Source: a virus. From it: DNA of 64,000 nt. The position numbers and the translations under genes are program-made. This document shows positions 7,963 to 49,771 of the stretch, piece by piece. The first letter of the stretch is position 1; the number at the start of each line of letters is the position of its first letter. The notes under the pieces were generated by a model. It was given only the letters and a program-made list of their open reading frames with translations. It made no database searches and was not told the DNA's origin. The stretch spans positions 42,331 through 106,330 of the IMG/VR virus record IMGVR_UViG_3300024999_000055. One strand, given 5' to 3'.

Positions 7963-9891
7963 TTATAAATCTAATTCCGTAAATTTTTTTCTTATATTCC
8001 AATCATATCTTCTTGCTTTACTCCAAAAATTATATTTCCCTTCATATATTTTAGATTTATTTAATTTTATATTTTTTCTAGAAATCATTTTAACATATCC
8101 TATAACTCTTGAAAAAGTAGCTATATCATCACTACCACATACATTGCATTTTTCAATATTTTTACCGTCAGTTGCTTTAAATTTTTGTCCACAATTCATA
8201 CAACTTGTTAATGTTGGTGTAAAAGTAATATAGTTAATTGGTTTATCAAATAATTTATTTAAATACTTTGCTAATTTTAATGGTTCAATTTTTGATTCGA
8301 TAAAATGGTGTAGAATTGAACCACTTGTTGCATAACCTTGGTATTCTGCTGCGTTTTCTATTTGTTGAGTAAAATCTTCTTCACTAAATGGCAACATACA
8401 TCCAGAAGTTAAATATATATCTTTACCAATTCCTTGAACAAATATTTTTCTATTATTTTCTTTTGCCCATTTTAGATCATTTCTGGCTAATTTAATACCA
8501 GCATTTTCTGCTGGTGCATATTCGATCCCACAAGCAACTTTATCTCTTACAATAAATTCATTTACAATTTCTGTAATATATTGCATTATTTCATGAGCAA
8601 ATAATTTACCTTCTGTATTTTTAAGTCCATCTTCATATCCTATATTAATCAATGCTTCATGCATACCAGTAACCGCAAATACATTAAAATAATTTTTTAA
8701 ATCTTCATTAAATGAGAAAAACGTAGGGAATAAATCTTTATTTTGTTCAATAAATTTTCTTTTAGCCATATGCCCTTCTTGCATTATTTCAAAATATTCA
8801 CGAATTTTTGATTTTAATAATTCTTTATCATGCCCAAACTCAATGAATACTCTATTTAAGTTTAAATTAAGAACTTGAATAGCACCTGTATTGCCAATTG
8901 ATGAACCAAATATTCCTCCTCCTACTTTTGATAATAAAGAAAGATCAATTTGTAAGCGACAGCATAGACTTCTTGATACTTCTGGATCTTTTGGTTTAAT
9001 ATTAGGATTTAGTTTTCTGTAATATTCATTTTTAAAAGGTTTAGTTTTGAAATTTTCAAAATAAACTCCACCCCAAGAATACATTTTATTTAATAAATAT
9101 AAAAACAATTCATTTTCATAGTTAAAATTATCATCAATTTGCACAGTAATTAATGGAAAAGTAAATGGAATACCTGCTCTTGTTCCTTCTGCCATTACAT
9201 CAATAATAGCATTATTAATTCTATCGAAATATTTTGATGGTATTTCTGAATATGTAAAATCACAAACATCGCCACTAATTATAACTAATTCATCTTTAAT
9301 TTCTTCTGAAGGTTTCCCAAATTCCATTGTAATATTAGAAAAAGCGCTTTCACTACCAGAACGAAGTGGTAGGTTTAATTCGTAGATTAAAGATTTAAAC
9401 ATTCTTCTAAGTTGTTTATCTGAATATTTTATATCATTAATTTCTTCATTATATAAATAAGAAGCAGAAATTGTTGTCATTTGAGATAACATTACTGCAC
9501 CTGATACTTGTTGAGACATTAAAACAACTATATTACTAAAATGTCTTAGCAGTACATCTAAACTAGAACATGGTTCTGATTCTAACATATTTTTTGCACG
9601 ACTTGGGATACCTAATGTGGCAATATCTTTACAAGAAACTGATTGACAATATGAACTTAATTGTTTGTCATGTATGTATATAACTCCATCTTTATATAAA
9701 TCAACAAGTTTTTTAGGAAATATTTTTGTCATTAAATATTCTTCTTCAGATTTATTACAAATATTCTTTCTTAATAAAGGTAAGGAATATACGAAATTAC
9801 TATTTTCCCTTTTTAAATAATCTGTTTTTATATCATCGTCATTTGCAATAAATTTACTAATTAATTCATTTGTATTCTTAAACATTCCCAT
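7963..9891 (-). CDS. nrdD: Anaerobic (class III) ribonucleotide reductase, no ATP cone, CC-type finger loop
   Basis: IYIHD..SYC, RSLCCRL, PAEN, CMNCG/CNVCGS Zn site, SRVIGY glycyl-radical motif. Confidence 0.95.
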   Translation of the reverse strand: MGMFKNTNELISKFIANDDDIKTDYLKRENSNFVYSLPLLRKNICNKSEEEYLMTKIFPKKLVDLYKDGVIYIHDKQLSSYCQSVSCKDIATLGIPSRAKNMLESEPCSSLDVLLRHFSNIVVLMSQQVSGAVMLSQMTTISASYLYNEEINDIKYSDKQLRRMFKSLIYELNLPLRSGSESAFSNITMEFGKPSEEIKDELVIISGDVCDFTYSEIPSKYFDRINNAIIDVMAEGTRAGIPFTFPLITVQIDDNFNYENELFLYLLNKMYSWGGVYFENFKTKPFKNEYYRKLNPNIKPKDPEVSRSLCCRLQIDLSLLSKVGGGIFGSSIGNTGAIQVLNLNLNRVFIEFGHDKELLKSKIREYFEIMQEGHMAKRKFIEQNKDLFPTFFSFNEDLKNYFNVFAVTGMHEALINIGYEDGLKNTEGKLFAHEIMQYITEIVNEFIVRDKVACGIEYAPAENAGIKLARNDLKWAKENNRKIFVQGIGKDIYLTSGCMLPFSEEDFTQQIENAAEYQGYATSGSILHHFIESKIEPLKLAKYLNKLFDKPINYITFTPTLTSCMNCGQKFKATDGKNIEKCNVCGSDDIATFSRVIGYVKMISRKNIKLNKSKIYEGKYNFWSKARRYDWNIRKKFTELDL

Positions 9892-16552: not shown

Positions 16553-17767
16553 TTAGATTATATTAACTCTAACTGGATGTAAACCTACACCCTCTATTCC
16601 CTCTGCAAAAGCATCAGGAAATACTTTTTTAATAATCTGGTATGCACCATTTAAGTCTGCATTAATAAATTCACCTCCATTACTTTGAAATAATCCTCTT
16701 GCCACTCTTCTACTTTTATTATAATTTTCTTTACATGGTATTTCACCATCAAGAAAACTTGTACCAGAAGTATATGATTCTTCTGTTTCAATAAAATTAA
16801 TACCAACATTCTCACATTTGTATTTAATCTTTTCAATAAATAAACTATGTGGAATACCAACAAAATTCTGATTAACTTTCCTACTCATATTACTTTCTTG
16901 TTTCCAATCTTTATTTTTACCTACTACCACAGTATCGATATTATTCTCAATGCACCAATTAATTATGTATTTACTTGTTTTATGTATATAATCAGTTATT
17001 TTATTATTTCGTTTATTAGTTAATTGCTGTAGTTTATTACTCCAATTTTTATCATGTTTTAATTTTAAATCAGATTGTTTTTTAGATTTTTCTTTATTAT
17101 AATACTGATTTATAGATTTCAATGGTTTACCATTAATTATGAATGATTGTAATCCAATATTATTCCCTACAGTCGCCAAATTATCTATTCCAATATCTAT
17201 CCCTATTATATTGTTATTATAACTTATTTTTTCTGGAACATCAATTTCGTAAACAATTTCCATTATATATGTATCACTTTTTGGTATAAATCTCACTTGC
17301 ATAAGTTTACCATTTACATTAGTTCTTATTTTATTATTTAATGGTTTTAATTTACTCCAACTAAATCTTAAATAACCATCACTTATACTGAATTTAATAT
17401 TATCAATTATTAAATTATATCTTCCTTCTTTTTCTTTATAATTAGGAAGTTTAGGTTTACCTAAAAATTTATCTTTGTTTTTATTCCATTCTTTAATACC
17501 TGCAAAAAATGACCTCCAATTTTGATCAAGTAATTTTAAAGTTTGTTGACCTACATTGCTCCCTATTTCTTTATATGGTTCAGATTCTTTACACAACTGA
17601 AATAATTCATTATATCTAATCCATTTTTTATTATTTATAAATTCTTGACGAATTATATAATTAGCATAATTATAAAGATTTTTAGATTTAAAACATAACT
17701 CATCTATTAATTTCCATTGTGGATTATTCTTTTTAATGATATGTTGTTCAACTCTATTTGTTTTCAT
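16553..17767 (-). mobile_element. tnpB: TnpB (IS200/IS605-family RNA-guided nuclease), no TnpA, no Zn ribbon
   Basis: SKNLYNYANY, PKLPNYK, IGIDIGIDN (RuvC-I), EESYTS, INADLNGA (RuvC-III). Confidence 0.92.
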
Positions 17768-33275: not shown

Positions 33276-35240
33276 CTAAATCATCTTAATAAATTCATCT
33301 TCGGAAAGCACATAAATACCATCTTTAATTGCTTTATCTACTTTACTACTACCTTTTACACTTCCAACTACAAGATAATCTAAACTCTTAGCATATCCTG
33401 AAGTAAATTCAGCACCCAAACCTTCAAGTAATGATTTTAATTCTTCTTTCTTGTAATTTGCAAACGTCCCAGTACAGTAAATCTTCTTAGAATGAAAAAA
33501 TCCATCTTTATTTGTTGTATTTTCCAACTTAATTTCCTCCTTCTTAACACTCACAACATCTAATAATTCCTTAATTTGTTTCATATTATCTTCATCTTGA
33601 AAATATGAATAAATACTCATTGCAGTAGTTTCGCCAAAATCTTTAATAGTCATAAATTTATAACCTGAATAAGATTCTGTTGCATCTAAAAAAGCATTAA
33701 TATCACTATTAAAATGTTTCTCTAATCTCTTAGAACTACCAAATCCAACATTTTTAATCCCTAAAGATGCAATTAGTGAACACATTTTAATACTCTTAGA
33801 ATTTTCAATCGCTTTAATCATCTTATTATAAGATTTCAAAGCAAAACCAGGAAGTGATATAATATCTTTTTTATATCTTTCTAGTTTAAAAATATCCATA
33901 TAACAATTAATAAAACCTTTGTCAATAAATACTTCTAATGATGCTTCACCAATATCACTAATATTAAAGCATTGTTTACTAACAAAGTGTTTTAATTTCT
34001 TAAGTAACTTTGCATCACAATCAGGATTAAGACAGAATAAATCATGAGTATTTACAACTTTTCTAACTTCTACTTTACCTTTACAAGTAGGACATTCTTT
34101 AGGAATTTCTTCAGTTCCACTTCTTGTAATATTATTTTCAATTGCAGGAATAATTTTGTTCCTCTTCGATATCTCAATCACATCATCTTTACCAAGTTTT
34201 AATTGCCAAAATCTATCTAAATTATGTGTTGTTGCTCTGGTTACTTCTGTACCTTCAATTTGAACTGGTTGGAAGATACCTGTACCTACAATTTTCCCAA
34301 ATCTACTTGTATTCCATTCAGTATATAGATATTTTGATTTATGCCAACTATCCTCGAATTTGAAAGAAATTGATCCATTATAATGATGATTGGTTTTGCC
34401 TAATGATTCTGCATATTTAATATCATTGAATGTTAGCACTAGGCCATCAATTGGATAATCAAAAGTAGGAATATCTTCTATAATTTGATTAATTGTTTCT
34501 TCAAGATTATTTTTATCAACAATCCAATATTGAACAGTATCAAATCCTTGTGATTTTAACCATTCTAATTGTTCAATTTTTGTATTAAATTTATTTCCTT
34601 TAAGAATATTAAAAGCACAAAATTCAATATTCCTATCTTTGCATACTTTAGAATCAAGCAAACCAACTGAACCATTCGCTAAATTCCTTGGATTTGCATA
34701 TCTATCATCTGGATTTTTAATTTTAGAGTTTAATTCATTGAATGAAGAATATTTCATATAATTCTCACCAATAATTTGAATCTCTTGTTCATCATCAATT
34801 GTTAATGGAATATTTTTAATACTATTACCATTATGAGAAATATCTTCTCCAATATTTGTTTCTGAATCTCCTCTAGTTACCAATTGTTTAAATTCTTTTT
34901 GATAAGTTATTTTACCTGTCCCACCATCAATTTTTAACATTAACACACCTTGTTTATCACCTAACCATTTTACCAATTTAGGAATTTCTTTGATCTTGTT
35001 AAGTGACAATAGAGGAATATCATGGTGTACTTTTGGTAGATTAGATACTACTTTATAACCTGCTCTTTGTGTAGGTGAATTAGATAATATGATATTAGTA
35101 GATTCTTCTAATGATTTAAGTTCGTCAAATAGAATGTTGTATTCACGATTCTCCATTATAGGAGTATTTAGATTGTAGTATGCATCACATGCTTTGTTTA
35201 ATTCTTTCACCAAATCTTGAATTCTCTTAATCTTATCCAT
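33276..35240 (-). CDS. ligA: NAD-dependent DNA ligase
   Basis: LLSLNK, KIDG, TRGD, NPRN, IDGLV, CPTC..CLNPDC, HhH, C-terminal BRCT. Confidence 0.96.
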   Translation of the reverse strand: MDKIKRIQDLVKELNKACDAYYNLNTPIMENREYNILFDELKSLEESTNIILSNSPTQRAGYKVVSNLPKVHHDIPLLSLNKIKEIPKLVKWLGDKQGVLMLKIDGGTGKITYQKEFKQLVTRGDSETNIGEDISHNGNSIKNIPLTIDDEQEIQIIGENYMKYSSFNELNSKIKNPDDRYANPRNLANGSVGLLDSKVCKDRNIEFCAFNILKGNKFNTKIEQLEWLKSQGFDTVQYWIVDKNNLEETINQIIEDIPTFDYPIDGLVLTFNDIKYAESLGKTNHHYNGSISFKFEDSWHKSKYLYTEWNTSRFGKIVGTGIFQPVQIEGTEVTRATTHNLDRFWQLKLGKDDVIEISKRNKIIPAIENNITRSGTEEIPKECPTCKGKVEVRKVVNTHDLFCLNPDCDAKLLKKLKHFVSKQCFNISDIGEASLEVFIDKGFINCYMDIFKLERYKKDIISLPGFALKSYNKMIKAIENSKSIKMCSLIASLGIKNVGFGSSKRLEKHFNSDINAFLDATESYSGYKFMTIKDFGETTAMSIYSYFQDEDNMKQIKELLDVVSVKKEEIKLENTTNKDGFFHSKKIYCTGTFANYKKEELKSLLEGLGAEFTSGYAKSLDYLVVGSVKGSSKVDKAIKDGIYVLSEDEFIKMI

Positions 35241-38578: not shown

Positions 38579-38652
38579 ACGAAATGCGTCTTTGGTAATG
38601 ATATTTATACTACATATAGTATATTGTAATAATTATATACTATATGTAGTAT
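38579..38652. repeat. Composite site: palindrome A + tandem NrdR-box-like pair
   Basis: ACGAAA-TGCGTC-TTTGGT, then ATACTACATATAGTAT (38607) and ATACTATATGTAGTAT (38637). Confidence 0.8.
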
Positions 38653-39754: not shown

Positions 39755-39829
39755 ATAAATTTTATGTTTTGTTGTGATTTTTATACTACATATAGTATTC
39801 ACAATCTATATCTATATTATATGTAGTAT
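39755..39829. repeat. Composite site: palindrome A + tandem NrdR-box-like pair
   Basis: ATAAAT-TTTATG-TTTTGT, then boxes at 39783 and 39814 (31 bp apart). Confidence 0.8.
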
Positions 39830-41581: not shown

Positions 41582-42823
41582 TCATTCTCCTGCCTTATAA
41601 TTATAAATAGGTTTAATAATATCTAATATTTCAACAGTATTATTAATATTATTAATAATTTCTTCTATAGGTTTATAAGCCATAGGTGCTTCATCAAGCG
41701 TATGTGTACTTACAGAATTAGTAAAAATATCTTTCATAGATTCTTGATAATCTTCCATAGATATATTTTCTTTTGCCTTACTTCTACTCATTAATCTACC
41801 AGCACCATGAGGAGCAGAATAATTCCAATCTGCATTTCCTTTGCCTACAGCTAATATTGATCCATCACGCATATTAATAGGAATTAAAACTTTTTCACCT
41901 TCATAAGCAGAAATAGCACCTTTACGAATAATATTATCTTTAAAATTAATGTAGTTATGAATTGTTTCAAATATTTTAATATTATGATATTCTTTTGCAG
42001 TTATTTCTCCTATTTTTATAAGTTTTAATAAAATAATATCTGCTATGATATATCTATTTAAAGTAGCATATTCTTGGCAAAGTTTCATATCATGTAAATA
42101 TTTATCTCTCCATTCACCAGAAAGAAAACATAAATCTTTTGGATAAGATGGATGTAAATTATTATACCTTTTCTCTAATTCTTTTAATGCACTATGAATT
42201 TCATTTCTCTTTCCTTGTTGCTTATAATCAGCAATTAACTTTTCTTTTTGTTCATAAAAATCACTTTTGCCACTACATAAATCTATAGCAATGTTTTGAT
42301 AATATTCTGCTACTTGTTTTCCTAAACTTCTACTTCCTGAGTGAATTACAAGATATAAATTATCATTGCTATCTTTATTTACTTCAATAAAGTGATTTCC
42401 TCCACCAAGAGTACCTATACTTTTTTCTATTCTTTTTGTATCTTTAAGTGACCTATAGCAATGTAATTCTCTCATTTCATCAAAGTCAGATATTCTATTT
42501 TTATGTGTATTTCTTCCTAATGGGACAAATTCACGAATAATATCATCTAATTTTTGTAAATCAATATTTACTTTTCCTAATTCAAAAACTCCCATACCAC
42601 AACCGATATCTACCCCTACAATATTAGGAATTACTTTATCTCTTAAATCAGCAGTAAATCCTATTACACAGCCTGACCCATAATGACAATCTGGCATAAT
42701 ACGAATTTTACCACCTTCTACAAAAGGTTGATTACATAATTCAATTATCTGAGATATAGCAGTTTGTTCAATATTATCAGTAAAAACTTTTGCAGTATTG
42801 TATTTTCCTTTTAATTCTAACAA
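41582..42823 (-). CDS. rtcB: RtcB RNA ligase (3'-phosphate/5'-OH)
   Basis: MPDCH, VGVDIGCG, GTLGGGNHFIE, IHSGSR, HNY, HGAGR, DEAPMAYK; likely TTG start at 42823 after AAGGAGG. Confidence 0.95.
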   Translation of the reverse strand: MLELKGKYNTAKVFTDNIEQTAISQIIELCNQPFVEGGKIRIMPDCHYGSGCVIGFTADLRDKVIPNIVGVDIGCGMGVFELGKVNIDLQKLDDIIREFVPLGRNTHKNRISDFDEMRELHCYRSLKDTKRIEKSIGTLGGGNHFIEVNKDSNDNLYLVIHSGSRSLGKQVAEYYQNIAIDLCSGKSDFYEQKEKLIADYKQQGKRNEIHSALKELEKRYNNLHPSYPKDLCFLSGEWRDKYLHDMKLCQEYATLNRYIIADIILLKLIKIGEITAKEYHNIKIFETIHNYINFKDNIIRKGAISAYEGEKVLIPINMRDGSILAVGKGNADWNYSAPHGAGRLMSRSKAKENISMEDYQESMKDIFTNSVSTHTLDEAPMAYKPIEEIINNINNTVEILDIIKPIYNYKAGE

Positions 42824-42850
42824 GTTTTCAACCTCCTTTATCTTAATGAC

Positions 42851-42879
42851 ATTATACAATTATTTTTATATTGTGTCAA
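42851..42879 (-). promoter_or_regulatory. sigma-A promoter of rtcB
   Basis: TTGACA-17 nt-TATAAT. Confidence 0.85.
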
Positions 42880-43783: not shown

Positions 43784-44550
43784 GGTTTCATTCTCCTTTA
43801 TATTTATAATTTCTTCTCATATGAAATGGTCTACTATCTTCAGGATCATATGGATAACATTTTTCACATATAATTGGCGTATTACTTTCATTTACAATAC
43901 TTTTTATTAATTTATCTCCATATTTACATTCAGTACAATAAACATGTTCAAACATAATATTTATTTCTCCACATTTAATATCTTGCATATATTAAATCTC
44001 CTTTATATTTTAATAAAATGTGTATGGTTATGATTTTATTCTATTACTTCAATTTTAACTTTCTTACCATTTAATCTTCTGCATAACTCCCATATACTTA
44101 TTCCATCTTTTCTTCCTAATAAAAACCATTGCCCTTCCATGTCATTATAAATTTCACCCTCATATGTAATATCAAGATATGGAATTATTAATTCATCTTC
44201 CACATATTTAATAAATATTTCTTTAGAATAATCTAAACCCCAATATGGGTCATCATAGTCAATTTTATGTCCATTATTTAGTATGCCATGTATACCAAAT
44301 TGAATATTTTCACTAACCCATCCATTACAATTAGAAGGATAAATGGTAGCATAATATTCAGTAATAGTTATAGAATATTTTTCTCTAATATATTCTATTG
44401 CTTTAGTTAAATTAATATTGATTATATCTTGCTTATTCATACATTCAATTTCATGTTGCACACAATTATAATGATCTGTAAATTCTTTATCACATTTTTC
44501 ACATTTATAAATTTCTTTTGGCATAATAATTTAGTCTCCTTTTTATTAAT

Positions 44551-44652
44551 ATGAAAGCAAAATTTGGCTCAAATATTACCAAAGATTCCTTTGATCATGA
44601 TTTCTATACTATATGTAGTAGATATATGGTTTTGTATCACTACATATAGTAT
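44551..44652. repeat. Two palindrome-A sites + tandem NrdR-box-like pair
   Basis: ATGAAA-GCAAAA-TTTGGC; ACCAAA-GATTCC-TTTGAT-CATGATTT; boxes at 44606 and 44637. Confidence 0.8.
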
Positions 44653-44661
44653 ATTATTAAC

Positions 44662-46362
44662 TTATCCTACCTTATATATTTCTTTTTCATTAATAACTAT
44701 AAATTTACCACCTTCTCGCAATAATTTACTATCTTCATTTACAATATTACATTCAAAGTCTTTATAAATATTTTTTTCATAACTATAACCCTTAATACAT
44801 CCATCGCTTGGTTTAAATATTATATTATTATAGAAACATAAATTTCCTAAATCGTTAGTGTATTTTATTGCTTCACTTTCATATATTACATTATTTTTGT
44901 TTAAAACATAAGTATTAAATAATCCTTTTTGATTTTCAGTAATAAATAACCATCTCTTAGTTACTATATCATAATGCAAACCATAATTAATAATTTTATC
45001 AGTATTCATTAATGTGTAATTATATCCTGAAACATTAATGATTTTCATATTGTCATATATATTGCAAACAAAATATGTCTTATCATCAATAATTTCAAAA
45101 ATATTATTAAAAGAAACTTTACTAATATTTTTATTATAGTTTCCATTTTCATTAATGGTTAATTCAACCAAACTATTACTTAAATTAATATAATATACTT
45201 TATTATCAATTATTCTTACATCACTTTTATTAATCTTCTCAAATGTAAAAATATTATTTGATGTTTTAATCTGAATTTTATTATTAAATATTCCATAGAT
45301 AATACTTCCATCATTAGAAAAATAATATCTATTCTTCTTATTTTTCACCTTATATTTTGATTTAATATGAACGATATTATCATCATTATCTAAATATAAG
45401 TCTAAACTCAATATAGTTTTAATACTCTCATTTGTAAAATACAAAAATACTGGTATCCCATTACTACTTTCAATTTTAATAGGTTTATCTATTATCTTTG
45501 CTAAATTATTGCATATTGGACATTCCGTAAATTTACCATAGTAATATTCTTTATCTTTCTGACAATATTTTAAATTATTAAAATAGTCATCTAAACTATT
45601 ATCTATGATAAATCTTTTTTTATTTTCAAATACCTCTTTTAATTCTTCTAACATTTTAGGTGACATATAATTCCATTTATTTATTGTTTTAGGAATAGTA
45701 ACTTTATTATTATCAATAACTGATATACCTTTATTCATACGTTCTAATATATTTATATCTGGAGTAATTGTTCCTCCAAATGGATGTATCCTAGTTAAAG
45801 ATTTAAATATTAATATTCCAAAAGCATAATCATCTGTGTCAGAAGAAAAATTATTACTTGTTAATAACGGATCTTTAAATGAATCCATACATACTAAACC
45901 TTTGTATTTATCTATAGTCCAACTATCACAATCAATAAAATATATATTAAAATATTTATCAAATAAAATATTACAATCATTTAAGTCACTAATATATATA
46001 TTTTGATTGTGTAATTTTATTAGAGTATCTTTAATATTAACCAACATTTTAAGTATATCTTTTGATTTAATATTATTTGTTTGTAAATATTTCTTATTAG
46101 ATAGTCTTTTAAATTCTTCACCTTCAACTTTATCCATTAAATATCCTACAAACTTACCTTTATTATAAACAATATCATTAGGAATGATTACGTTATCAGG
46201 TAGTGTTTTAGACATTAATAACTTTACTTTTTCTAATTTTTCATTTTTATCAATATTACTTTTGTATATTTTAATAATCTGATTTTGATATTCATAAATT
46301 ATTCCTTCTCCACCTTCGGCTAGTGGATTTTGTTTTAAGAACTTATCATCTACCTGAATCAT
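44662..46362 (-). CDS. Ser/Thr protein kinase (TerY-P-type) with Zn knuckle and beta-rich C-terminal domain
   Basis: LAEGGEGIIY, IIKIY, ISDLNDCNIL, FIDCDS, HPFGG, CQKD...CPIC. Confidence 0.88.
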   Translation of the reverse strand: MIQVDDKFLKQNPLAEGGEGIIYEYQNQIIKIYKSNIDKNEKLEKVKLLMSKTLPDNVIIPNDIVYNKGKFVGYLMDKVEGEEFKRLSNKKYLQTNNIKSKDILKMLVNIKDTLIKLHNQNIYISDLNDCNILFDKYFNIYFIDCDSWTIDKYKGLVCMDSFKDPLLTSNNFSSDTDDYAFGILIFKSLTRIHPFGGTITPDINILERMNKGISVIDNNKVTIPKTINKWNYMSPKMLEELKEVFENKKRFIIDNSLDDYFNNLKYCQKDKEYYYGKFTECPICNNLAKIIDKPIKIESSNGIPVFLYFTNESIKTILSLDLYLDNDDNIVHIKSKYKVKNKKNRYYFSNDGSIIYGIFNNKIQIKTSNNIFTFEKINKSDVRIIDNKVYYINLSNSLVELTINENGNYNKNISKVSFNNIFEIIDDKTYFVCNIYDNMKIINVSGYNYTLMNTDKIINYGLHYDIVTKRWLFITENQKGLFNTYVLNKNNVIYESEAIKYTNDLGNLCFYNNIIFKPSDGCIKGYSYEKNIYKDFECNIVNEDSKLLREGGKFIVINEKEIYKVG

Positions 46363-46373
46363 TTAATCATCTC

Positions 46374-47018
46374 CTAAAATGCAATTGTAATATCATCTTT
46401 AAATAATTTATGTTCTCTATTTATTAATCTTTTAATAGCAAATTCTTTTCTGTTAATTAAACTTTTTTCAAATTCCTCTTTAAATTCACTATTTAAAATA
46501 TATTGCAAACCATCTGAAGCAATACCTATAGATTTATACTCGTCTTTTTTATAATATCTTAAATCAAAATTCACTCCATTTTTATAATCAGATAAATATT
46601 CTTCTGATATATAATTATAGGCATAATATTTAGGTTTATTATTTTGTTCTATTGTTTCATATTCTAAAATATCATCATATTTTTGTTTAATAATAATTCC
46701 GTCTCCACATGAATAAACAACAAAATGTTCTTCTAATTCTTCAACAAATAAAATAGTAAATAATAAGAAATCCTTAATATTATTTGGTTTATTATTTATA
46801 ATATTACTATTAAATATAACATTAAAAAAATCTTTTGTGCTAATAATAGGACATCCTAAATCTTCGTACATGTGACAAAACAATTTAACTCCCACTTCTG
46901 AATGTAACCCTTCCGAACAACCATCTACAACACATTTAATGTTATTATGTATAAATCCATAATCTTGATTATTTAAACCTTTTTCTAAATGACTATATCC
47001 TATTTTATTTATAAACAT
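46374..47018 (-). CDS. PP2C-family protein phosphatase
   Basis: GYSH...NQD, VVDGCS, CGDG, ASDGL, DDITI. Confidence 0.88.
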   Translation of the reverse strand: MFINKIGYSHLEKGLNNQDYGFIHNNIKCVVDGCSEGLHSEVGVKLFCHMYEDLGCPIISTKDFFNVIFNSNIINNKPNNIKDFLLFTILFVEELEEHFVVYSCGDGIIIKQKYDDILEYETIEQNNKPKYYAYNYISEEYLSDYKNGVNFDLRYYKKDEYKSIGIASDGLQYILNSEFKEEFEKSLINRKEFAIKRLINREHKLFKDDITIAF

Positions 47019-47036
47019 ATTATAATCTCCTTAATT

Positions 47037-47075
47037 TATACTAAGGTAAGAATTAATATATCTTACCTTAGTATA
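47037..47075. other. Perfect 15-bp inverted repeat between the vWA and PP2C genes
   Basis: TATACTAAGGTAAGA-9 nt-TCTTACCTTAGTATA. Confidence 0.85.
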
Positions 47076-47091
47076 TTTATGTTTTTATTTA

Positions 47092-47766
47092 TTACATTGT
47101 AAAGAAATCATCTGTTTTATTTACTACATTTTTAGAACTTTCAATAACAGATTTTGATAAACAATTAAACGCCTTTCTTAATTCTGATGCAGAACTCTTA
47201 ACATCAAGTATATTTTTAAAATCTAATTGTTTAGCAATACTTGTTGCTCCTCCACCAAAACTTATAAATGCAGTTGTAATTTCTTCATTGTTAAGTGTCT
47301 GGATACTTCTTTTAGCATCTGATATTACATTTCTTGAAGAAGTATTATCACCATCACTAAATATTGCAAATACTGCTTTAACCCTCATTCCTTGATTTTT
47401 TAGAAATGTTATATAGTTAGTTAATTTCTCACTACCTTCTACGATTACATCATATAATGCCGTCATGCCATTTGAGGAATAAGCAATATCAAAATCTGAT
47501 ACTTTTTTATATCCTCCAACATTAATATAATCTGCAAAATCTGCTCTTGCTACAAGGATTTCGTCAATTTCTTTTGAATCTAATAGTGCATTTTTAAATT
47601 CATTTAATGAAAATTTCATGTCAGATACAAATGGATACATTGAACCAGAACCATCAATACCTACAAAGATAAGATTTACACTTTCATTATCAATTTCTTC
47701 TACAGAAGTATTCTCAATTTCAATTTCGTCCATACCTAAAATATCTAATTCGTTTGTCATAGTCAT
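47092..47766 (-). CDS. vWA domain protein (TerY-like)
   Basis: MIDAS IDGSGSM, TALYD, IFSDG. Confidence 0.88.
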   Translation of the reverse strand: MTMTNELDILGMDEIEIENTSVEEIDNESVNLIFVGIDGSGSMYPFVSDMKFSLNEFKNALLDSKEIDEILVARADFADYINVGGYKKVSDFDIAYSSNGMTALYDVIVEGSEKLTNYITFLKNQGMRVKAVFAIFSDGDNTSSRNVISDAKRSIQTLNNEEITTAFISFGGGATSIAKQLDFKNILDVKSSASELRKAFNCLSKSVIESSKNVVNKTDDFFTM

Positions 47767-47812
47767 AATATATTCCTCCTATTATTTTTATTATTTTATA
47801 TTTTTATTATCT

Positions 47813-48721
47813 TTAAAGTTTTAAGTCTGTTGATTTAAGTATATTTACTTTATATTGCTTTTTAAAAGATTTAAAAGCATTTTCTGTTGTTTGTTCAAAA
47901 CTTGGAATAGAAGACATACAATCTTCAAGAATGTAAATTTTCTTAGTTACTTCAGGTTTATTTTGATAATACTCAAGAATTTGTTTAATTGATTCTAAAC
48001 AACAGTGTGATTTTGCCTCACCCAAAACAACAATCTTATCAAACTTTTCAATCTTATTAAGAAAATCAATATTGATATAGTTTTTTGTATCATATTCTGG
48101 CTTAATCACCCCGTACATCTCGCTCAAAGGGTCTTGACCTTTAACAAGTCTAAGTGTCATACTTTTCTTTGCTACTGAATGAAAATAAACCATATTAGCA
48201 AATTGATTTTCTAATGCACAACCACTTGTACCTTGTAGGCAATGATATGTCCATATAACTAAAACCTTTTTACCTTGTTTTTCTAAATTCTCCACATATT
48301 CTCTACTTGCTTTAGGATTAACAACAGGCATCCATTTTCCAGAATCTAAATCTGCCAATGTAATTGCTGTAAATGGAGTAGGATTATTGCCTTTAGCATC
48401 TACCCACCAGCAAGGATGGAAAATTTGGAATGGGTTATGTGTATCAATTGATACAGCAATTTGTGAGATTTTATCCATATTATCATAAATAAATCTTGTG
48501 GAATTTTCAACATCTTTAATTGCTCCAGGTACACCCAACGCTCCATTATCCATAAAATCTTGTTGAACATCAATTCCGATTACTAATACACTTTCTGAAT
48601 TTTTACTTGCAGGAATCATTTGCTCATTGTTTGCTAATACTAACAAGTCATTCATCTTGATTGGATTTTCTGTTGCCCCGATAGATGATACATTTACGAT
48701 TTCCTCAAATTTTGTTTTCAT
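47813..48721 (-). CDS. Nicotinamidase/isochorismatase-family cysteine hydrolase
   Basis: IDVQQDF, GALGVPGA, SIDTH, WTYHC, VKG, GEAKSHC (Asp-Lys-Cys triad and metal ligands). Confidence 0.88.
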   Translation of the reverse strand: MKTKFEEIVNVSSIGATENPIKMNDLLVLANNEQMIPASKNSESVLVIGIDVQQDFMDNGALGVPGAIKDVENSTRFIYDNMDKISQIAVSIDTHNPFQIFHPCWWVDAKGNNPTPFTAITLADLDSGKWMPVVNPKASREYVENLEKQGKKVLVIWTYHCLQGTSGCALENQFANMVYFHSVAKKSMTLRLVKGQDPLSEMYGVIKPEYDTKNYINIDFLNKIEKFDKIVVLGEAKSHCCLESIKQILEYYQNKPEVTKKIYILEDCMSSIPSFEQTTENAFKSFKKQYKVNILKSTDLKL

Positions 48722-48774
48722 GTTTTTAATCTCCTTTTTATTTATATTTTTTATTTGTTTTATTTATTGATGTT

Positions 48775-48803
48775 ATTCTACCATACTAGTTAGTGACTGT
48801 CAA
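48775..48803 (-). promoter_or_regulatory. sigma-A promoter of the four-gene operon
   Basis: TTGACA-17 nt-TAGAAT with extended TG. Confidence 0.8.
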
Positions 48804-48851
48804 CATATTTATTTTAATATTCTATTAATATTATACTTTATTTAGATCATG

Positions 48852-48925
48852 ACAAAACCAATATTTTATATTGAAATTTTCCTACATATAGTAGTATTTA
48901 ATTATTTAACCACTATATGTAGTAT
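48852..48925. repeat. Composite site: palindrome A + tandem NrdR-box-like pair
   Basis: ATCATG-ACAAAA-CCAATA-TTTTAT; boxes at 48879 and 48910. Confidence 0.8.
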
Positions 48926-49147
48926 ATAAAAACTATTCTTCTACAATCTCATATTCATCATCAATTAAATATATCCATTCGTTTCCTTTATATTGAACAA
49001 ATACTCCCCTAATATTACCTTCCCAATTATAATCACCTATTGATTCTTTAGATTCTTCTATAGTTAACTCATTATATATTTTTGCTTCAACAATTTCTCC
49101 AACTTTCTCATTGAAATAATTAGATAATATTTTAACTTTCATATGTA

Positions 49148-49771
49148 TTATTCCTCCTCTTCATCCCATTCTTCTAACAATTCTATTGCTTCACTATAAC
49201 CTTTCCAGTTATCCACTCCTGCACATTTAAGTGCTTCTAAAAAATTACTATCTTTTAATAATTTATTATATTCTTCTAACGTAATATTTATAGTTTCATT
49301 ATTATATGTATTAAATTTCTCAATCAATTTAAAACATCTAGGTTCAATACTCTTATCAATATTAACACCAGGAACAAATGTTAATCCTTCGGCCACATTA
49401 TCTCCTTGTTGAGTAGAAACTTGAACTAAACAACCATTAGGTAAATTGCATACCTTTGTTGATTTCATCCATTTTTGATTTTTAGAACTTGCTTTACATA
49501 ATAATGCAAAAGTATCTCCGTCACCATAAACTTTAATATCATTAATTTTCTCTTTTGCTTGCTCAACGTTTTGAATGTTTAATGTTTTACTATTCATATT
49601 ATTTTCCTCCTCTTTATTATTTGATATTTTTCTTTTAAATTCTTTACATCCACCAGGAGTGCAATCACCTTTGCCACAATTATTATCATTTCTACAATAA
49701 CCCATACATAAATTATCATTAAATTGCTTTGCACAATCAAAACAACAATCTACTTTATTATATTTATTCAT
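49148..49771 (-). CDS. Three-part fusion protein (Cys-rich / WMKSTK domain / GVDNWxGY domain)
   Basis: Distinct segments; an internal RBS-like GAGGAGG before MNSKTL suggests a second start. Confidence 0.6.
   Translation of the reverse strand: MNKYNKVDCCFDCAKQFNDNLCMGYCRNDNNCGKGDCTPGGCKEFKRKISNNKEEENNMNSKTLNIQNVEQAKEKINDIKVYGDGDTFALLCKASSKNQKWMKSTKVCNLPNGCLVQVSTQQGDNVAEGLTFVPGVNIDKSIEPRCFKLIEKFNTYNNETINITLEEYNKLLKDSNFLEALKCAGVDNWKGYSEAIELLEEWDEEEE

Follow-up and report, generated by a model that had tools for sequence, protein, structure and literature searches.

Why should a phage link the gene for a nicotinamidase to genes for a protein kinase and for the phosphatase that would oppose it? 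The question is raised by a 64,000-nucleotide stretch of viral DNA (hereafter the window), which is the 3' 64 kb (positions 42,331 to 106,330) of the 106,330-bp IMG/VR virus record IMGVR_UViG_3300024999_000055, estimated by CheckV to be 57% complete. Within it, four co-directional minus-strand genes at 44662-48721 are a single operon of a large AT-rich phage, encoding in the direction of transcription a PncA-type hydrolase, a von Willebrand factor A (vWA) protein, a PP2C-type phosphatase and a Ser/Thr kinase. The conversion of nicotinamide to nicotinate by a nicotinamidase is the entry step of the Preiss-Handler salvage of nicotinamide adenine dinucleotide (NAD+), and the depletion of NAD+ is among the commonest of bacterial anti-phage strategies. 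We take the four genes to be one inherited functional unit common to phages and to the chromosomes of Firmicutes; and because this unit recurs, in phages and in gut bacteria, beside genes for making NAD+, NAD+ recycling probably has a phosphorylation switch that has so far gone unstudied.

How regularly do the four genes travel together? Loci were collected in two ways, 59 being anchored on the hydrolase and 78, all viral, being anchored independently on the vWA gene. Full four-gene linkage was seen in 38 of the hydrolase-anchored loci, and the order hydrolase, vWA, PP2C, kinase was common to all 11 viral loci of that search and to about 28 genome contigs (mostly from Lachnospiraceae, but also from metagenome-assembled genomes labelled Prevotella, Treponema, Spirochaetes and Clostridia). 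Among the vWA-anchored viral loci the full order was present in 66 of 78, with PncA following the kinase in one more, and the triad of vWA, PP2C and kinase was found without any PncA only once; one metagenome accounts for many near-duplicates among these loci, which together fall into about 13 clusters at 80% identity and six to nine at 50%. The linkage of PncA to the triad is thus near-obligate. An initial annotation of the window, made from the letters alone, had staked its proposal beforehand on the hydrolase and the triad occurring together elsewhere, and on these counts that part of the proposal holds; its choice of B. subtilis as a host setting suits the cellular relatives poorly, as these are mostly Lachnospiraceae.

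The arrangement is also widely spread. Distant versions on contigs of 100-390 kb, in which the vWA protein is only 23-33% identical, retain the gene order, and three GenBank megaphage records of 462-595 kb (LR756500.1, LR745208.1 and LR756511.1; loci L063, L064 and L065) contain unannotated and diverged copies of the four genes in the same order, contiguous in L063 and with inserted genes in L064 and L065. The order is kept even where the proteins of two lineages are only 23-40% identical, and several bacterial phyla have it.

The case for regarding the hydrolase as a nicotinamidase comes from its family profile, from its invariant residues and from gene context. When a profile of 35 family members was compared with the PDB, there were six matches, all to nicotinamidases (best E 1.2e-11), and some close relatives of the phage protein are annotated with the Pfam Isochorismatase family (PF00857). 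The catalytic triad (D51, K194 and C240) is invariant in the 35 sequences and aligns with that of solved nicotinamidases, and the metal ligands D93 and H95 (of a D-x-H motif) and H160 (of a W-x-x-H-C motif) are likewise invariant and align to 1ILW. With canonical PncA (P. horikoshii 1ILW/1IM5, M. tuberculosis 3PL1 and yeast Pnc1, 2H0R) the family thus has in common its Asp-Lys-Cys triad, an Asp-His-His site for the metal, and W-x-x-H-C. Canonical proteins are of 180-235 aa, whereas the phage family runs to about 300 aa, having a 45-aa N-terminal extension and an insert of about 60 aa (residues 96-156) with invariant H102, W105, W106 and D108; both are without counterpart in the solved PncA structures.

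Gene context points the same way. The hydrolase is found without the triad in 21 loci, and because triad-less orthologues in Bacillales (Ectobacillus, Solibacillus, Sporosarcina and Paenibacillus) sit in operons that run from an NrtR-like NUDIX regulator through the hydrolase to PncB, a NadD-like adenylyltransferase and NadE, the family can be assigned as nicotinamidase by context: to judge from their gene content, these operons cover the Preiss-Handler route in full, and the hydrolase takes the slot of PncA. The phage hydrolase would accordingly be expected to convert nicotinamide to nicotinate and so to have the same role as canonical bacterial PncA in the first step of nicotinamide salvage. 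None of the other three proteins is as well conserved. In a maximum-likelihood tree (quick mode) the PncA of the window falls in a viral-only subclade of a mostly triad-linked clade (with support of 88-92 in the Shimodaira-Hasegawa-like approximate likelihood ratio test), and triad-linked PncAs occur outside that clade as well (L026, L031, L059 and L060).

Of the remaining three proteins, the phosphatase and the kinase could be recognized by sequence. The former scores 36 bits against PP2C_2 (cut-off 24), and its metal-binding motifs (D19, D32-G33, D106, D169-G170 and D208-D209) are invariant in the alignment; its family profile had no match in the PDB at E <= 0.1. The kinase matches Pkinase above the Pfam cut-off (34.9 bits), with a G-loop of sequence EGGEG and with K31, D126, N131, D144, D146 and S147 invariant in the family, the loop D144-C-D146-S147 being the equivalent of the DSD loop of YegI. 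Beyond the kinase domain lies a Zn-ribbon-like motif with only three invariant cysteines (C267 and C281-P-x-C284), where the pLDDT (predicted local distance difference test) score of the model is 57-66, and then a C-terminal domain of about 270 residues, modelled with a pLDDT of 87.9, whose structural matches are to beta-propellers only and which is presumed to be a sensor or docking domain. The vWA protein itself has no Pfam match, although four to five of its relatives match VWA_2, VWA or VWA_CoxE (down to E 7e-8). Because searches of the PDB with the single sequence and with the profile gave only marginal results (TRAP vWA at E 0.12), its fold was taken from structure prediction: AlphaFold modelled the core at a pLDDT of about 90, and Foldseek matched the model solely to vWA/integrin I domains (probability 1.0). 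Its metal ion-dependent adhesion site (MIDAS) is complete, D38, S40, S42, T102 and D138 being invariant in the family. Also conserved are an acidic peptide at the N terminus and, at the C terminus, a Ser-rich helix that terminates in DDFF. A predicted complex of the vWA protein, the C-terminal domain of the kinase and PncA scored 0.01 against a mark of 0.32, which gives no answer either way. Overall, the initial annotation had placed the four open reading frames exactly, all on the minus strand, and the features it ascribed to them (PncA-like motifs in the hydrolase, an intact MIDAS, and intact catalytic motifs in the phosphatase and kinase) prove to be residues that are invariant among relatives.

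What, then, is the unit likely to be for? Its neighbours in other genomes bear out the link to nicotinamide and NAD metabolism that had been suggested at the outset. The most telling arrangement is in the complete, 167.7-kb phage genome G001, which has direct terminal repeats (L066; also L010 7208-16901). Here the unit is split by inserted genes, the order being NUDIX, PncA, [AP2-domain protein and Dcm methylase], vWA, NadE, PncB, a DFP-domain (CoaB-like) protein, three small open reading frames, PP2C and kinase, so that two NAD+ enzymes, NadE and PncB, lie inside the unit, between vWA and PP2C. Elsewhere, an NMNAT-like gene is directly upstream of the cassette in three phage contigs (L011-L013), NrtR-like genes adjoin it in L025, L032, L034 and L038, and Prs-like and NadV genes are near it in L015, L022, L033, L059 and L060.

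With these neighbours in mind, we think it rather likely, if far from assured, that the unit places the entry to Preiss-Handler salvage of NAD+ under the control of phosphorylation, either to supply the phage with NAD+ or as a counter-defence. PncA would deamidate to nicotinate the nicotinamide that arises from cleavage of NAD+, for example by Sir2- or TIR-type defences, and host enzymes would make NAD+ from the nicotinate, a task that in other phages could fall to PncB, NadD and NadE of their own. The beta-propeller of the kinase may supply the input, whether as sensor or as docking domain; the YegI-like kinase and the opposing PP2C would set the phosphorylation state of the vWA protein as adaptor, most probably at its conserved Ser-rich C-terminal tail; and the output would be the binding of a partner by the MIDAS site, such that the switch gated either the salvage pathway or a partner protein. 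The benefit would be that NAD+ is kept available for phage replication, most plausibly after NADase defences have released nicotinamide. The phage encodes an NAD-dependent DNA ligase, and its replication therefore consumes NAD+.

Several considerations weigh against it. A constitutive nicotinamidase would have no obvious cost, so the need for a kinase switch is unexplained. The hydrolase scores below the curated cut-offs of Pfam Isochorismatase (PF00857; 18.1 bits against 27) and of NCBIfam NF008623 (PRK11609; 30 bits against 174). No gene for PncB/NadV, NadE, NadD/NMNAT, a NUDIX protein or Prs was found in the 106-kb record, and the rebuilding of NAD+ would therefore need the host or the unsequenced 43% of the genome. 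In chromosomes the cassette can have gene sets of the kind found in conflict islands as neighbours: a MoxR-type AAA_5 ATPase with DUF5682 downstream in Lachnospiraceae (L017, L019 and L028), and a ParB_N protein with a PAPS-reductase/DUF3440 protein (IbrA/IbrB-like) upstream (L015, L017, L020 and L022). Finally, the removal of nicotinamide would starve the phage NAD+ reconstitution pathways NARP1 and NARP2 and would relieve the inhibition of sirtuin-type NADases, and thus fits defence as well as counter-defence.

These last points lead directly to the most serious of the rival explanations, that the unit serves prophages, phages and genomic islands in defence or superinfection exclusion, a TerY-P-type switch sensing infection and the nicotinamidase acting as effector. 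By destroying nicotinamide it would block the NARP1 and NARP2 of rivals, for both of which nicotinamide is reported to be the substrate (PMC13464706), and would remove a product inhibitor of host Sir2-type NADases. According to PMC11090510, Gao et al. (2020) reported TerY-P-like triads that act against phages as stand-alone systems; in the common phage contigs of 40-85 kb the cassette holds an accessory position, with the portal gene on one side and a Ro/TROVE-like gene (DUF2828/DUF7788; phrog_850, 'RNA-binding protein') on the other; and the chromosomal neighbours in Lachnospiraceae just described also count in its favour. We nevertheless consider this explanation unlikely, if worth serious attention. 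Neither the vWA nor the PP2C family is matched by PADLOC models and the kinase is without the OB (oligonucleotide/oligosaccharide-binding) fold of the defence version, while the interleaving of the unit with NadE, PncB, NMNAT-like and NadV genes, in phages and bacteria alike, argues for the making of NAD+ and not for its withholding. Moreover, in the present phage the cassette is in the early region of a large genome with its own replication genes, beside a gp5.9-like anti-RecBCD domain. If the nicotinamidase did withhold nicotinamide from rival phages, a defence of this sort, aimed at NAD+ reconstitution, would be without precedent.

Could nicotinamide be the signal for the switch? In one version, to which we would give a small but appreciable chance, the burst of nicotinamide from a firing Sir2 or TIR NADase would be detected through PncA or the propeller, the kinase would then phosphorylate the Ser-rich tail of the vWA protein, and the MIDAS would engage a target. 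In phages this would switch on the rebuilding of NAD+ or a counter-defence, and in bacteria it would set off immunity. If true, this would provide the first metabolic input and output for the TerY-P/Yeg family of triads, and would add to the known phage routes of NAD+ recovery a fourth, which is regulated. In another version, which appears about as unlikely, PncA or the propeller would report the nicotinamide released by NADases, the kinase acting on the vWA protein or on other targets to launch a response, and deamidation would be secondary. That PncA is so nearly inseparable from this subfamily of vWA proteins and kinases suggests more than co-expression, the predicted propeller is of a sensor type, and the conserved disordered peptides at the two ends of the vWA protein would suit docking. 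Against such a purely reporting role, there is no evidence of physical contact, and PncA appears to be under selection as an enzyme, because it is better conserved than the other three proteins and has kept the full catalytic set, as in the housekeeping-type operons.

It is very improbable that the hydrolase acts on some other substrate, such as a modified base, a nucleotide or another amide, in which case the interpretation in terms of NAD would be wrong. The isochorismatase-like superfamily is chemically diverse, and the sub-threshold scores, the N-terminal extension and the insert with its invariant residues could all be read in this sense; but all six PDB matches of the profile were to nicotinamidases, the PncA-specific W-x-x-H-C and D-x-H motifs are present, and orthologues bearing the same insert fill the PncA slot of NrtR-PncB-NadD-NadE operons. 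As to a merely coincidental adjacency of an auxiliary metabolic gene and an unrelated signalling triad, the early regions of large phages do gather accessory genes of many unrelated kinds, but the idea is close to refuted by the conservation of gene order between such diverged proteins and across several bacterial phyla, and by the insertion of PncB and NadE inside the unit in G001.

If a phospho-regulated entry into NAD+ salvage is accepted as the working interpretation, how might the operon itself be controlled? Each of the four open reading frames is preceded by a good Shine-Dalgarno sequence, the intergenic gaps are of 46, 73 and 11 nt, and no terminator-like sites were found inside the operon. 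The promoter proposed for it in the initial annotation is indeed the strongest sigma-70-like match in the surrounding 5.4 kb (43900-49300), with 11 of 12 consensus positions and an extended -10 element, although promoter-like matches as a class were not above chance in such AT-rich DNA (42 found, 55 expected). The gap between the vWA and PP2C genes contains an RNA hairpin (Table 1), which is possibly a processing, stability or attenuation element and might set different levels for the first two and the last two gene products.

The operon had also been described as a cassette bracketed by paired sites. These sites are real and do flank it, each being an inverted-repeat pair of CTACATATAGT followed by TCATGATC, but they are not specific to the cassette. 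CTACATATAGT has 11 matches in the window, against 2.0 expected, and its pairs, with centres 29-32 bp apart, have a good likeness to tandem NrdR boxes; all four pairs are far from the NrdD-like gene. We considered the flanking sites as possible ends of a mobile cassette and rejected this, because pairs recur at 38.6 and 39.8 kb, both intergenic places, whereas the nearest carriers of the cassette, L004 (91% PncA identity) and L006 (84%), lack them. The sites are instead regulatory or transcript-boundary elements of this phage. The pair after the kinase gene can fold as RNA into a 19-bp hairpin (-19.7 kcal/mol, z -4.9), and a role at the transcript end is therefore an alternative to that of operator. 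All four pairs are foldable as long RNA hairpins.

The source of the DNA is clearly a phage, with a G+C content of about 25% in the window and nearly all genes on the minus strand. The operon region gave no megablast match in the phage collection, and with tblastn the same collection yielded matches in only four records, all of them uncultured; no cultured phage in it has the four genes. Downstream of the operon is a replication module (PolC-like DNA polymerase, primase, DnaB-like helicase and the NAD-dependent DNA ligase), together with a RecJ-like exonuclease, an exonuclease V/helicase and an NrdD-like reductase; a transposase-like gene (16553-17767, minus strand; phrog_506, E 3e-49) is just downstream of the module. 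Also downstream is an RtcB-type ligase, which may repair tRNAs cut by anticodon nucleases. The protein encoded directly upstream of the operon matches the RecBCD-inhibitor domain of T7 gp5.9 in its last 50 or so residues (PF25708, E 9e-17; phrog_4790 and phrog_6234), its first 150 residues being without a match.

Table 1. Features of the four-gene operon and its surroundings (window positions, except where a locus number, L, is given).
Feature	Position	Strand	Length	Basis or remarks
PncA-type nicotinamidase	47813-48721	minus	302 aa	Family profile, invariant residues, gene context
vWA protein (YegL/TerY-like)	47092-47766	minus	224 aa	MIDAS residues, predicted fold
PP2C-family Ser/Thr phosphatase	46374-47018	minus	214 aa	PP2C_2 match, Asp motifs
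Ser/Thr kinase fusion	44662-46362	minus	566 aa	Kinase domain, Zn-ribbon-like motif, beta-propeller
YegI-like kinase domain (residues 1 to ~255)	45598..46362	minus		Pkinase match, motifs
Kinase C-terminal part, stop codon included	44662..45597	minus		Zn-ribbon-like motif, then predicted beta-propeller
Sigma-70-like promoter, TTGACA-17-TGnTAGAAT	48803..48775	minus		About 54 nt upstream of nicotinamidase start codon
RNA hairpin	47037-47075	minus	perfect 15 bp	vWA-PP2C gap; -19.6 kcal/mol, z -7.0; no U tract
Inverted-repeat pair of CTACATATAGT, NrdR-box-like	48882-48922	minus		Just upstream of operon promoter
Inverted-repeat pair of CTACATATAGT, NrdR-box-like	44605..44653 (44608-44650)	minus		Directly after kinase stop codon
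Further inverted-repeat pairs of CTACATATAGT	38610-38649 and 39786-39826 (repeats at 38610/38639 and 39786/39816)			Intergenic
Protein with T7 gp5.9-like RecBCD-inhibitor domain	49148-49771	minus	207 aa	Directly upstream of operon
RtcB-type tRNA-splicing ligase	41582-42859	minus		phrog_1075, E 4e-138; downstream of operon
NAD-dependent DNA ligase	33276-35240	minus		phrog_3869, E 3e-154
NrdD-like gene	7963-9891			
DUF2828/DUF7788 (Ro/TROVE-like) gene	L120 3545-4996; homologue L035 4325-5848			

How does the unit compare with systems already described? To our knowledge, the three known routes by which phages rebuild NAD+ are unregulated sets of enzymes, and none of them begins with a nicotinamidase. 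In the present unit the enzyme that opens the deamidated route of salvage is tied to a switch made of kinase, phosphatase and vWA protein, and the unit is conserved in many phage lineages, with genomes or contigs from about 40 kb to about 600 kb, as well as in gut Firmicutes. Ser/Thr phosphorylation may thus be able to gate NAD+ salvage in the course of an infection. Like the unit, the NARP systems represent phage-borne NAD+ metabolism in a setting of NAD+-depleting immunity, but no nicotinamidase and no kinase/phosphatase/vWA switch has been reported for them: NARP1 consists of Adps and Namat, and NARP2 of Nampt and Nmnat (10.1101/2024.02.11.579819), while NARP3 consists of PnuC and NadR (PMC13464706). 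The 57%-complete record contains no NAPRTase-family, cytidylyltransferase-like, Prs-like or NUDIX gene that might point to such a pathway, PnuC not having been searched for. Gut jumbo phages are reported to have pncB-nadD-nadE (Preiss-Handler) clusters, in an account that mentions pncA and in which the word 'kinase' does not occur (PMC11662467); in Phage G a PncA-like gene is annotated, its role being unknown (PMC12484599); and a large survey of viral NAD+ and ADP-ribose systems does not mention nicotinamidase (PMC9503650). Nothing relevant was found in the literature that joins nicotinamidase or isochorismatase with vWA, PP2C or TerY, in agreement with the earlier impression that the system lacked functional characterisation. 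The unit is, then, a TerY-P/Yeg-type triad fixed to a nicotinamidase, widespread but with no published description that we could find.

The closest characterised relative of the triad appears, from profile comparisons, to be YegL-PphC-YegI of E. coli K-12 and not the TerY-P models of PADLOC. The same three proteins (vWA, PP2C and Ser/Thr kinase) occur there in the same order, and we know of no physiological role or substrates for them. The kinase family aligns with YegI convincingly (hhalign 98.6%, E 5e-16), the alignment running into the CPxC motif that follows the kinase domain in both, and both have an unusual D-x-D-S loop in place of DFG; the vWA family aligns moderately with YegL (78%, E 1.8e-5, over 168 columns that include the Ser-rich C-terminal tail), and the PP2C family only insignificantly with PphC (E 0.054, 44 columns). 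YegI is active as a kinase in vitro, with the DSD loop and the adjacent Ser being essential, its substrates and role being unknown (10.1101/819920), and PphC is also an active enzyme in vitro (10.1101/303594). Two differences stand out: the Yeg locus has no nicotinamidase, and YegI has been described as a two-pass membrane protein without a sensor domain, whereas the phage kinase is predicted to end in a soluble beta-propeller.

TerY-P systems in the broader sense (Anantharaman, Iyer and Aravind 2012, as described in PMC11090510) comprise a TerY-like vWA protein, a PP2C and a Ser/Thr kinase that bears a Zn ribbon at its C terminus, and a phosphorylation-dependent switch has been proposed for them; in the experimentally validated defence version the kinase has an OB fold (PMC11090510). 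The phage triad resembles this architecture, with vWA, PP2C and a Ser/Thr kinase in one operon and, after the kinase domain, a motif that may be a Zn ribbon. The initial annotation went further, and took it for the anti-phage TerY-P itself; this is not upheld, in that the PADLOC models matched neither the vWA nor the PP2C protein, and none of 28 members of the vWA family, their only matches to the kinase being through other kinase models (PD-T4-6, mad6 and MkoA), and in that the predicted structure of the phage kinase has a beta-propeller where the defence version has the OB fold. The partners differ as well, those of TerY-P being genes for tellurite resistance or restriction, whereas the phage triad is fixed to a metabolic enzyme and accompanied by genes of NAD salvage; the TerY-P/Yeg family of triads thereby gains a concrete metabolic partner, and one that lends itself to experiment.

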